From assembly GCF_024502345.1 (NCBI RefSeq), contig NZ_JALDNN010000001.1: 64,000 nt of DNA; one strand, given 5' to 3'. Position numbers and translations under genes: made by a program. This DNA comes from Escherichia coli. GTDB lineage: Bacteria; Pseudomonadota; Gammaproteobacteria; Enterobacterales; Enterobacteriaceae. Under the pieces are notes generated by a model. It was not told the origin of the DNA. It searched no databases and saw only the letters and a program-made list of their open reading frames with translations. The stretch's first letter is position 1, and each line of letters begins with the position of its first letter. Positions 10,776-11,912 of this stretch are shown here, one piece after another.

Positions 10776-11912
10776 ATGGATCTATTGATTGTTTTAACTT
10801 ATGTGGCGCTGGCGTGGGCGGTCTTTAAAATCTTTCGTATTCCGGTGAATCAGTGGACGCTGGCGACGGCGGCGCTGGGAGGCGTGTTTCTGGTGAGTGG
10901 TTTGATTTTGTTGATGAACTACAACCCCCCTTACACTTTTACCGCGCAAAAGGCTGTGATAGCGATCCCCATCACGCCACAGGTGACGGGAATTGTTACT
11001 GAAGTCACTGACAAGAATAATCAGCTTATTCAAAAGGGCGAGGTGCTTTTTAAGCTCGACCCGGTTCGTTACCAGGCGCGAGTTGACAGACTTCAGGCTG
11101 ACCTGATGACGGCGACGCATAATATAAAGACGCTGCGCGCGCAGCTCACTGAAGCGCAGGCCAACACCACCCAGGTTTCAGCGGAGCGCGACCGTCTGTT
11201 TAAAAATTATCAACGTTATCTGAAAGGCAGCCAGGCGGCGGTGAATCCGTTCTCGGAACGTGACATCGACGATGCGCGGCAAAATTTCCTCGCGCAGGAT
11301 GCGCTGGTGAAAGGCTCGGTGGCGGAGCAGGCGCAGATCCAGAGCCAGCTCGACAGTATGGTTAACGGCGAGCAATCGCAGATTGTGAGCTTAAGAGCGC
11401 AACTTACAGAAGCAAAATATAACCTTGAACAGACCGTCATTCGCGCACCGAGCAATGGCTACGTCACTCAGGTACTGATCCGCCCAGGCACATACGCCGC
11501 TGCCTTGCCGCTGCGTCCGGTGATGGTCTTCATCCCCGAGCAAAAACGGCAAATTGTCGCCCAATTTCGGCAAAACTCGCTGTTACGTCTGAAACCTGGC
11601 GATGATGCGGAAGTGGTGTTTAACGCGCTACCTGGGCAGGTGTTCCACGGCAAACTGACCAGTATTTTACCTGTCGTGCCAGGCGGTTCTTATCAGGCGC
11701 AGGGGGTATTGCAATCATTAACGGTCGTGCCCGGCACGGACGGTGTGCTGGGAACCATTGAACTGGACCCTAACGATGATATCGATGCCTTACCCGACGG
11801 CATTTACGCCCAGGTGGCAGTTTACTCCGACCATTTCAGCCATGTTTCGGTGATGCGAAAAGTGCTGCTAAGAATGACCAGCTGGATGCATTATCTTTAT
11901 TTGGATCATTGA
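10776..11912 (+). CDS. yibH: HlyD-family membrane-fusion-like protein YibH
   Basis: 378 aa, N-terminal TM anchor and coiled-coil region; paralog of YiaV; start 3 nt after yibI stop. Confidence 0.85.

Follow-up and report, generated by a model that had tools for sequence, protein, structure and literature searches.

Tripartite efflux and secretion systems combine an energised inner-membrane transporter with a periplasmic adaptor and an outer-membrane channel, and two adaptor genes in the Escherichia coli DNA analysed here (contig NZ_JALDNN010000001.1; a stretch of 64,000 nucleotides, hereafter the window) raise the question of what such a protein works with when no transporter gene accompanies it. 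The genes are yibH (10776-11912) and its paralogue yiaV (19839-20975), each encoding a protein of 378 aa and each preceded by a gene for a small membrane protein of the DUF3302 family, yibI (10411-10773; 120 aa) and yiaW (19510-19833; 107 aa), respectively, with all four genes on the plus strand. In the best reading of the data, the products of yibI-yibH, and likewise those of yiaW-yiaV, are a self-contained module of two inner-membrane proteins. The explanation tentatively preferred here, with a probability of about 0.45, is that the DUF3302 protein and the adaptor couple as such a module to an outer-membrane factor (OMF), of the TolC type in E. coli, and have no dedicated canonical pump.

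The open reading frame (ORF) of yibH starts with ATG, has 378 codons and is labelled yibH, 'HlyD family secretion protein', E. coli, in RefSeq, which annotates yibI and yiaW as well. Its product matched the Pfam models CusB_dom_1 (4e-15), HlyD_D23 (5e-9) and Biotin_lipoyl_2 (3e-4) and the NCBIfam models EmrA/EmrK (2e-32) and MdtN (2e-31), the AaeA model being matched as well, and the yiaV ORF gave NCBIfam matches of the MdtN/EmrA type. The only NCBIfam cut-off passed by YibH was that of TIGR01730 RND_mfp (99.3 bits against 94.9), with YiaV just under it at 87.9 bits, while the equivalog cut-offs of EmrA, MdtN and AaeA were missed widely; on TIGR00998 (EmrA/EmrK) the score of YibH was 112 bits against a cut-off of 390.8. 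The top PDB match by sequence was EmrA (phmmer, 2.5e-11).

An AlphaFold2 (AF2) model of YibH (mean predicted local distance difference test score, pLDDT, 85.7) showed, from the N-terminus, helices 2-19 and 26-49, beta strands, a helical hairpin (97-152 and 161-218, pLDDT mostly above 90), lipoyl and barrel strands, and a last helix (355-374). In a Foldseek search of the PDB, the closest structures were the EmrA chains of EmrAB-TolC (8zal/8zar; E 2.6e-21, template modelling score 0.60-0.65), superposed with a root-mean-square deviation of 5.2 Å over 316 columns, followed by MacA, AcrA and MexA (E 1e-16 to 1e-13 for MacA and AcrA), and the alignments to EmrA, MacA and AcrA covered 300-348 columns. 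The features of the adaptor family, a split lipoyl domain, a beta-barrel domain and an antiparallel hairpin within the lipoyl domain, were present in YibH, and the inner-membrane anchor was provided by two hydrophobic helices instead of one helix or a lipid; their mean hydropathies of 1.97 and 2.27 mark them as genuine membrane helices. The cognate ABC, MFS, RND or FUSC pump gene that would be expected in the operon of an adaptor was found neither next to the two E. coli pairs nor as a consistent neighbour across 160 related pairs.

YibH and YiaV are genuine membrane-fusion or periplasmic adaptor proteins. This had been proposed in a preliminary description of the window, and it was borne out by Pfam and NCBIfam and, for YibH, by the AF2 model and Foldseek. 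The N-terminal transmembrane anchor given in that description was also found, but not as a single helix, since both AF2 and hydropathy indicate two. YibH has an EmrA-like fold yet is no EmrA orthologue, because it scored under the TIGR00998 cut-off and no emrB-like gene adjoins it.

EmrA was the closest known protein to YibH by both sequence and fold. The two share an anchor, a beta-barrel, a lipoyl domain, a long alpha-hairpin of about the same length and a C-terminal helix, and neither has a membrane-proximal domain. They differ in that YibH has two conserved membrane helices and EmrA one, in that the C-terminal helix of YibH bears its own conserved MRK.LLRM.SW motif, in that the tip loop of E. 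coli YibH is longer and lacks the R-x3-L-x6-G/S spacing, and in that the yibH pair has no emrB-like DHA2 neighbour and its DUF3302 partner is obligatory. The solved pump shows EmrA with one N-terminal helix only and without a membrane-proximal domain (PMC13139468). One anchor helix is also found in AaeA, YdhJ and MdtN, from which the C-terminal motif of YibH is missing. MacA and AcrA have the lipoyl, hairpin and beta-barrel core in common with YibH, which in contrast to them has no membrane-proximal domain, lipoprotein anchor, or ABC or RND partner gene.

The distribution of conservation along the protein, measured as top-residue frequency in an 83-sequence alignment of the YibH family, was the reverse of what we would expect for a classical adaptor, with the anchor as its least constrained part. 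The frequency was 0.71-0.81 for the membrane N-terminus, 0.91 for the NYNHPY motif that follows the helices and 0.67-0.80 for the last helix, and fell to 0.37, with many indels, in the hairpin, the lowest value in the protein. Of the aligned positions, 13 were invariant and a further 50 or so nearly invariant, with a concentration at residues 1-52 and 348-370. Codons 1-53 (10776-10934) encode the two membrane helices, the short basic loop between them and the NY-N(H/P)PY motif, and codons 355-374 (11838-11897) the conserved C-terminal helix of 20 residues, which is amphipathic (mean hydropathy 0.26, hydrophobic moment 1.03) and contains an invariant R361 together with the nearly invariant L364, L365, R366, M367 and W370. 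Codons 97-218 (11064-11429) encode the hairpin, predicted by AF2 as two arms of 56 and 58 residues joined by an 8-residue tip loop (153-160). By total length the family divides into groups of about 317-320, 335-345 and 375-385 aa and one of 437 aa, and the hairpin alone accounts for the differences. As the anchor is the most constrained part of YibH, this pattern points to a probable function for the membrane domain itself.

The DUF3302 partner was similarly conserved in its membrane part, a core of 37 residues being highly conserved across the family. YibI matched PF11742 (DUF3302) with 3.3e-41 over model positions 1-76 of 77, and both YibI and YiaW are typical full-length members. The family is small; at E ≤ 0.001 it comprised 819 clusters of 50% identity. 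YibI has two transmembrane helices, a conserved basic and His-rich loop of 17 residues and a C-terminal helix; in its AF2 model (pLDDT 86.9; helices 2-26, 28-35, 41-68 and 90-115) two long helices flank a short helix and the RNHPH loop, and hydropathy peaks at residues 7 and 50. When the positive-inside rule is applied, the cytoplasm is the predicted location both of the K/R loop of YibH and of the loop of YibI that bears KKR, which would place the body of YibH, and probably the tail of YibI as well, in the periplasm.

Outside DUF3302, YibI had no close counterpart in the collections searched: no NCBIfam model was matched, no meaningful sequence relative was found in the PDB, and Foldseek returned no significant structural analogue there. 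The nearest fold neighbours, at non-significant values (E 2.8-9, probability up to 0.2), were GldL and PorL. These are two-helix subunits of proton-driven motors, and the resemblance in the models may serve as an unsupported lead only. Other origins of DUF3302 were considered and rejected. As a divergent DUF1656 protein it gave hhalign probabilities of 0.1% against AaeX and 0.6% against YdhI, as a FUSC fragment it had no homology to AaeB detectable by hhalign, and for an ancient duplication linking it to the N-terminal helical hairpin of YibH the hhalign probability was 2.6%. Among the anti-phage models of PADLOC, YibH gave only coiled-coil noise (E about 0.005) and YibI nothing.

The coupling of each adaptor gene to a DUF3302 gene, also claimed in the preliminary description, was supported in E. 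coli by the PF11742 match, by the gap of 2 nt between the yibI stop codon and the yibH ATG, and by the 74% identity of YiaW to YibI; YibH and YiaV are 77% identical without gaps. The coupling of adaptor and DUF3302 gene is translational. Its extent was determined from loci of three sources, namely a genome scan (72 enterobacterial loci), more divergent members from Shewanella, Vibrio, Marinobacter, Aeromonas and metagenomes, for which Pfam annotation was precomputed, and a search of metagenome DNA with a pattern encoding the NHPHQDAI motif (120 loci), a pair being counted where the sequence continued past the DUF3302 gene. In all 160 complete pairs, a YibH-like gene came next after the DUF3302 gene, in the same orientation. 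Enteric partners had a length of 378 aa throughout, the exceptions being a few ORF calls that were truncated or used an alternative start. Outside Escherichia, Citrobacter and close relatives the flanking genes were unrelated, and because the pairing is constant while the flanking genes are not, the DUF3302-adaptor pair is an autonomous, obligate two-gene module.

One locus (L136: 1299-2510) appeared to hold a natural DUF3302-adaptor fusion that reads in-frame. In its DNA a TAATG stop/start overlap and, at about 1630-1650, a 'METLL' start both lie out of frame, for which reason the fusion was judged to be most likely an indel artefact of the metagenome contig and was not used as evidence. YiaT (MipA/OmpV) and YiaU (LysR) were likewise rejected as conserved partners of yiaWV, their synteny being confined to Escherichia, Citrobacter and close relatives; neither occurs near the pair in Serratia, Rahnella, Yersinia, Pantoea or Budvicia.

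The pump that would complete an ordinary system was searched for around the pairs with phmmer, using E. coli AaeB, YdhK, MdtO, EmrB, MacB, AcrB, TolC and MdtP, and 76 of the pairs were flanked by 3 kb or more on each side. Within the window, no ABC, DHA-type MFS, RND or FUSC pump gene and no TolC-family or other OMF gene was found near yibIH or yiaWV, in agreement with the earlier statement that neither is flanked by a pump or channel gene; the sole transporter-type gene within 10 kb encodes a GPH sugar:cation symporter (24921-26321) and adjoins a glycoside hydrolase gene. Across the 160 pairs, no ABC, MFS, RND or full-length FUSC pump consistently adjoined the module. The preliminary description had noted that consistent co-localisation with a specific transporter would make these proteins ordinary pump accessories, and no one transporter was consistently co-located.

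What did recur beside the module was an outer-membrane channel. When the two nearest neighbours on each side of the non-enteric loci were clustered (251 proteins, 193 clusters), the largest cluster, with 9 of the 251 proteins, was an OMF of the NodT/MdtP type, scoring 288-289 bits on TIGR01845 (cut-off 210). In loci L083, L091, L102, L134, L176, L196 and L201 the OMF gene follows the pair in the same orientation at a distance of 1-116 nt. In L131 it directly precedes the pair, and in L189 it is also upstream but on the other strand. Gene calls made independently and annotated with Pfam gave the order DUF3302, BSH_RND, OEP in a Pseudomonadales metagenome-assembled genome (L208) and in a 3.09-Mb contig (L209), and no pump was present within 7 kb of these two operons; a close relative (L210) had no OMF gene. 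The OMF-linked adaptors came from at least four lineages that are only 34-50% identical to one another, and they included the extra-long-hairpin variant. By a strict count, an OMF gene was adjacent in 8 of the 65 non-enteric pairs with downstream sequence, compared with none of 71 enteric pairs, and the OMF-linked operons were usually without any pump gene. OMF genes make up an estimated 0.1-0.3% of a proteobacterial genome, and by this estimate their recurrence here is far beyond chance.

Other neighbours were observed at lower frequency. A 398-aa CPA1 cation/proton antiporter (Pfam Na_H_Exchanger, 1e-44) was encoded upstream, often in the same loci as the OMF; a half-size FUSC gene (FUSC 1.9e-16, FUSC_2 5.6e-13) lay 61-62 nt downstream on the same strand in three metagenome loci; and SulP permease genes were found 3' of the pair in four to five loci. 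Most loci had neither an OMF, a FUSC, a CPA1 nor a SulP neighbour.

Several arrangements in single loci were observed as well. L131 (2203-7216) contains a tandem duplication of the module in the order OMF, DUF3302 and adaptor, DUF3302 and adaptor, CPA1 antiporter, with the two adaptor copies only 38% identical. A DUF3313 gene is located one to three genes 3' of the OMF gene in L208 (9579-10244) and L209 (10712-11338), and the L208 protein matched no NCBIfam model. Two half-size PqiA-like genes (NCBIfam PqiA, 1.5e-27) adjoin the module in L111 (1900-3151) and L164 (3175-4427), and in L111 they occupy the position of the OMF gene of an 83%-identical relative.

The hairpin tip is the part of an adaptor through which such a channel would be contacted. 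In the solved EmrAB-TolC pump, the hexameric EmrA tube, or nanochannel, meets TolC tip to tip (PMC13139468). The tip of the short-hairpin relatives of YibH reads R-x3-L-x6-[S/T/N/K]-x-R-D-L-D, aligns with the tips of MacA, AaeA, MdtN and EmrA and resembles the R-x3-L-x6-S of MacA, so that a putative interaction of this class with an OMF is well motivated by sequence. The long class to which the E. coli proteins belong has kept the trailing S-E-R-D-I-D beside its 8-residue loop, and its tip lacks the canonical R-L-S spacing; docking of YibH and YiaV to TolC is for this reason an extrapolation.

Taken together, the EmrA fold, the obligate pairing, the conserved membrane part, the lack of a pump and the recurrent OMF suggest one inner-membrane complex coupled to a TolC-family channel. 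YibI and YibH, and likewise YiaW and YiaV, would form this complex. By analogy with the hexamers of EmrA, MacA and AcrA, the adaptor would assemble as a periplasmic tube whose inner-membrane base would be made of the helices of YibH and the DUF3302 protein, and its hairpin end would dock to the TolC-family channel, giving an export duct across the envelope. The channel would be encoded elsewhere in E. coli, as it is for AcrAB, EmrAB and MacAB, and by a third gene of the operon in several relatives. The conserved DUF3302/YibH membrane domain might itself take care of entry and energisation, or some lineages might use an added partner for this, the half-size FUSC or the CPA1 protein, and the most plausible guess for the cargo is small solutes or ions. 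A more specific form of this proposal, which we consider rather unlikely, does entirely without a pump, the inner-membrane unit consisting of about six copies each of the two-helix hairpin of the adaptor and the two-helix DUF3302 protein. Such a unit could be a gated or ion-gradient-driven channel that needs no ABC, MFS, RND or FUSC component and feeds a TolC/NodT-coupled duct; the DUF3302-adaptor-OMF operons of marine Gammaproteobacteria would then be the complete machine, and the two E. coli copies would borrow TolC.

Several observations weigh against coupling of the module to an OMF without a dedicated pump. The YibI-YibH complex, the hexamer and the docking to TolC are steps that we infer, and the E. 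coli tip lacks the canonical spacing, as described above. Adjacency of an OMF gene is limited to 8 of 65 non-enteric and 0 of 71 enteric pairs. A heterodimer would have four membrane helices, few buried charges and no ATPase, so that an energy-coupling device is not obvious, and we know of no precedent for a tripartite system without a pump. That a separate inner-membrane partner can exist is indicated by the FUSC gene 3' of three loci and the CPA1 gene 5' of several. The published mutant phenotypes, which include urine fitness for yibI and an IS1 insertion in yiaW, are mild and non-specific.

The partner may instead be a pump encoded elsewhere, for which YibH or YiaV and the DUF3302 protein would be ordinary adaptor components; this is possible, although somewhat unlikely. 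Such a pump would most likely be of the FUSC/YccS-YhfK type, with an MFS or ABC transporter also conceivable, and DUF3302 would be an accessory comparable to the DUF1656 proteins AaeX and YdhI in aaeXAB and ydhIJK. The nearest families EmrA/EmrK, MdtN and AaeA do serve MFS and FUSC pumps, and the arrangement of a gene for a small two-helix protein directly 5' of a coupled EmrA/AaeA-type adaptor gene in yibIH mirrors that in aaeX-aaeA-aaeB, ydhI-ydhJ-ydhK and ytcA-mdtN-mdtO-mdtP. The FUSC-like proteins YccS and YhfK of E. coli are not known to have adjoining adaptor genes, and a FUSC-type protein is the best candidate for an unlinked partner because of the three FUSC-linked loci and the gene order resembling aaeXAB. 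However, adaptor genes are normally in one operon with their pump, and 160 pairs were found without a consistent one; unlike the FUSC/PET-type systems, the E. coli pairs and almost all of their relatives lack a FUSC gene, and a pump is missing even from the operons that hold an OMF. DUF3302 is also not detectably homologous to AaeX and YdhI (hhalign below 1%) or to AaeB, and the extreme conservation of the membrane helices would require a single conserved unlinked partner. The choice that the preliminary description had left, between a pump encoded elsewhere and a non-canonical membrane system, is narrowed by the OMF, FUSC and CPA1 contexts, but these do not decide it.

It is less likely still that the pair has no transport function and forms an inner-membrane-anchored scaffold for envelope architecture, for stress sensing or for the regulation of another membrane protein, with no duct in E. 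coli. This would fit with the hairpin, the OMF-contacting part in pumps, being the least conserved segment and ranging from about 64 to about 175 residues, with the missing tip motif of the E. coli class, and with the absence of both OMF and pump genes from the majority of loci; genes for carriers or channels of ions and solutes are frequent neighbours (CPA1, SulP, Ion_trans_2, mechanosensitive channel), and the reported phenotypes, adhesion and Ca2+ transformation efficiency, are related to the envelope. Against this, the full EmrA-like domain set and length have been kept, the short-class tips retain a pump-type R-L-S-like motif, and if the module did not interact with an OMF, it would be difficult to account for the same-strand OMF gene that recurs in four or more lineages. 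It is most improbable that the pairs are what decay has left of earlier pump operons, with no current function. The weak mutant phenotypes, the use of yibH by strain engineers as a neutral site for integration (PMC5852967) and the absence of yiaWV from about 30% of complete E. coli genomes, with IS1 in its place in strain FDAARGOS_943, would be in line with decay, but the frames are intact and nearly always of 378 aa across Enterobacterales, the pair is conserved across Gammaproteobacteria with the invariant YibH positions described above, DUF3302 comprises its 819 clusters, and yibIH is found in 99% of E. coli genomes.

The two copies differ in their distribution within E. coli, yibIH being present in 5383 of 5426 complete genomes (99%) and yiaWV in 3769 of 5426. 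In FDAARGOS_943, the best-matching strain, an IS1 element replaces the whole yiaY'-aldB-yiaWV-yiaU-'yiaT interval (L001, 18112-19276). The gene order in the window is mtlD and mtlA on the minus strand, then yibI-yibH, yibF, selA, selB, yiaY, aldB, yiaW-yiaV, yiaU and yiaT, with yiaU (LysR) convergent to yiaV and followed by yiaT (MipA/OmpV). Here yibF lies directly 3' of yibH (junction 11912-11983), and the contiguous 2.7-kb yibI-yibH-yibF-selA stretch was kept in only 1523 of 5425 E. coli genomes and interrupted in the others, in K-12 by the RhsA island.

Some features of the surrounding DNA were also observed. The stop codon of yiaV and the 3' end of the convergent yiaU overlap by 4 nt (20972-20975), and a paper on overlapping transcription ('excludons'; PMC12288877) reportedly names yiaV. 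The divergent intergenic region between mtlA and yibI (10020-10240) contains five TGTGA-N6-TCACA-like palindromes, which we take to resemble the CRP-type sites of the mtl promoter, and since they also lie upstream of yibI, catabolite control of yibIH is conceivable. Downstream of aldB (18955-19128), inverted repeats resembling repetitive extragenic palindromic elements gave three Rfam naRNA4 matches below threshold (33-40 bits against a gathering score of 59.5). A riboswitch or leader that could hint at the cargo was looked for 5' of the pair, and none was found, either in the window or at nine loci of diverse origin.

In the searchable literature there is no mechanistic study of YibH, YiaV, YibI, YiaW or DUF3302, only incidental mentions. 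The yiaV product is listed as an uncharacterised entry, TC 8.A.1.1.4 (PMC10971958). In uropathogenic E. coli, yibI is induced in urine, and its deletion resulted in a competitive index of 0.33 in urine fitness and in reduced adhesion (PMC5404293). The IS1 insertion in yiaW was found in macrophage-adapted E. coli, with no attributable phenotype (PMC5495878), and deletion of yiaW is cited in PMC12844161 as giving a higher efficiency of Ca2+-mediated transformation. A 2021 survey of tripartite systems in Chemical Reviews lists E. coli examples, and YibH and YiaV are not among them. Since databases already annotate the genes and show their orphan status implicitly, the bare finding is not new. The strict DUF3302-adaptor coupling, the inverted conservation and the operons with only an OMF are absent from the searchable literature, and they define a testable variant of the tripartite system.

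If an adaptor, a two-helix partner and an outer-membrane channel do suffice, this would be a new architecture for transport across the envelope; DUF3302 would gain a role, and four y-genes of E. coli would no longer count as uncharacterised. Of the two pairs, one is carried by 99% of sequenced strains, is urine-induced and adds to uropathogen fitness (PMC5404293). If an unlinked partner of the FUSC type is involved instead, orphan adaptors would be matched with orphan putative transporters.

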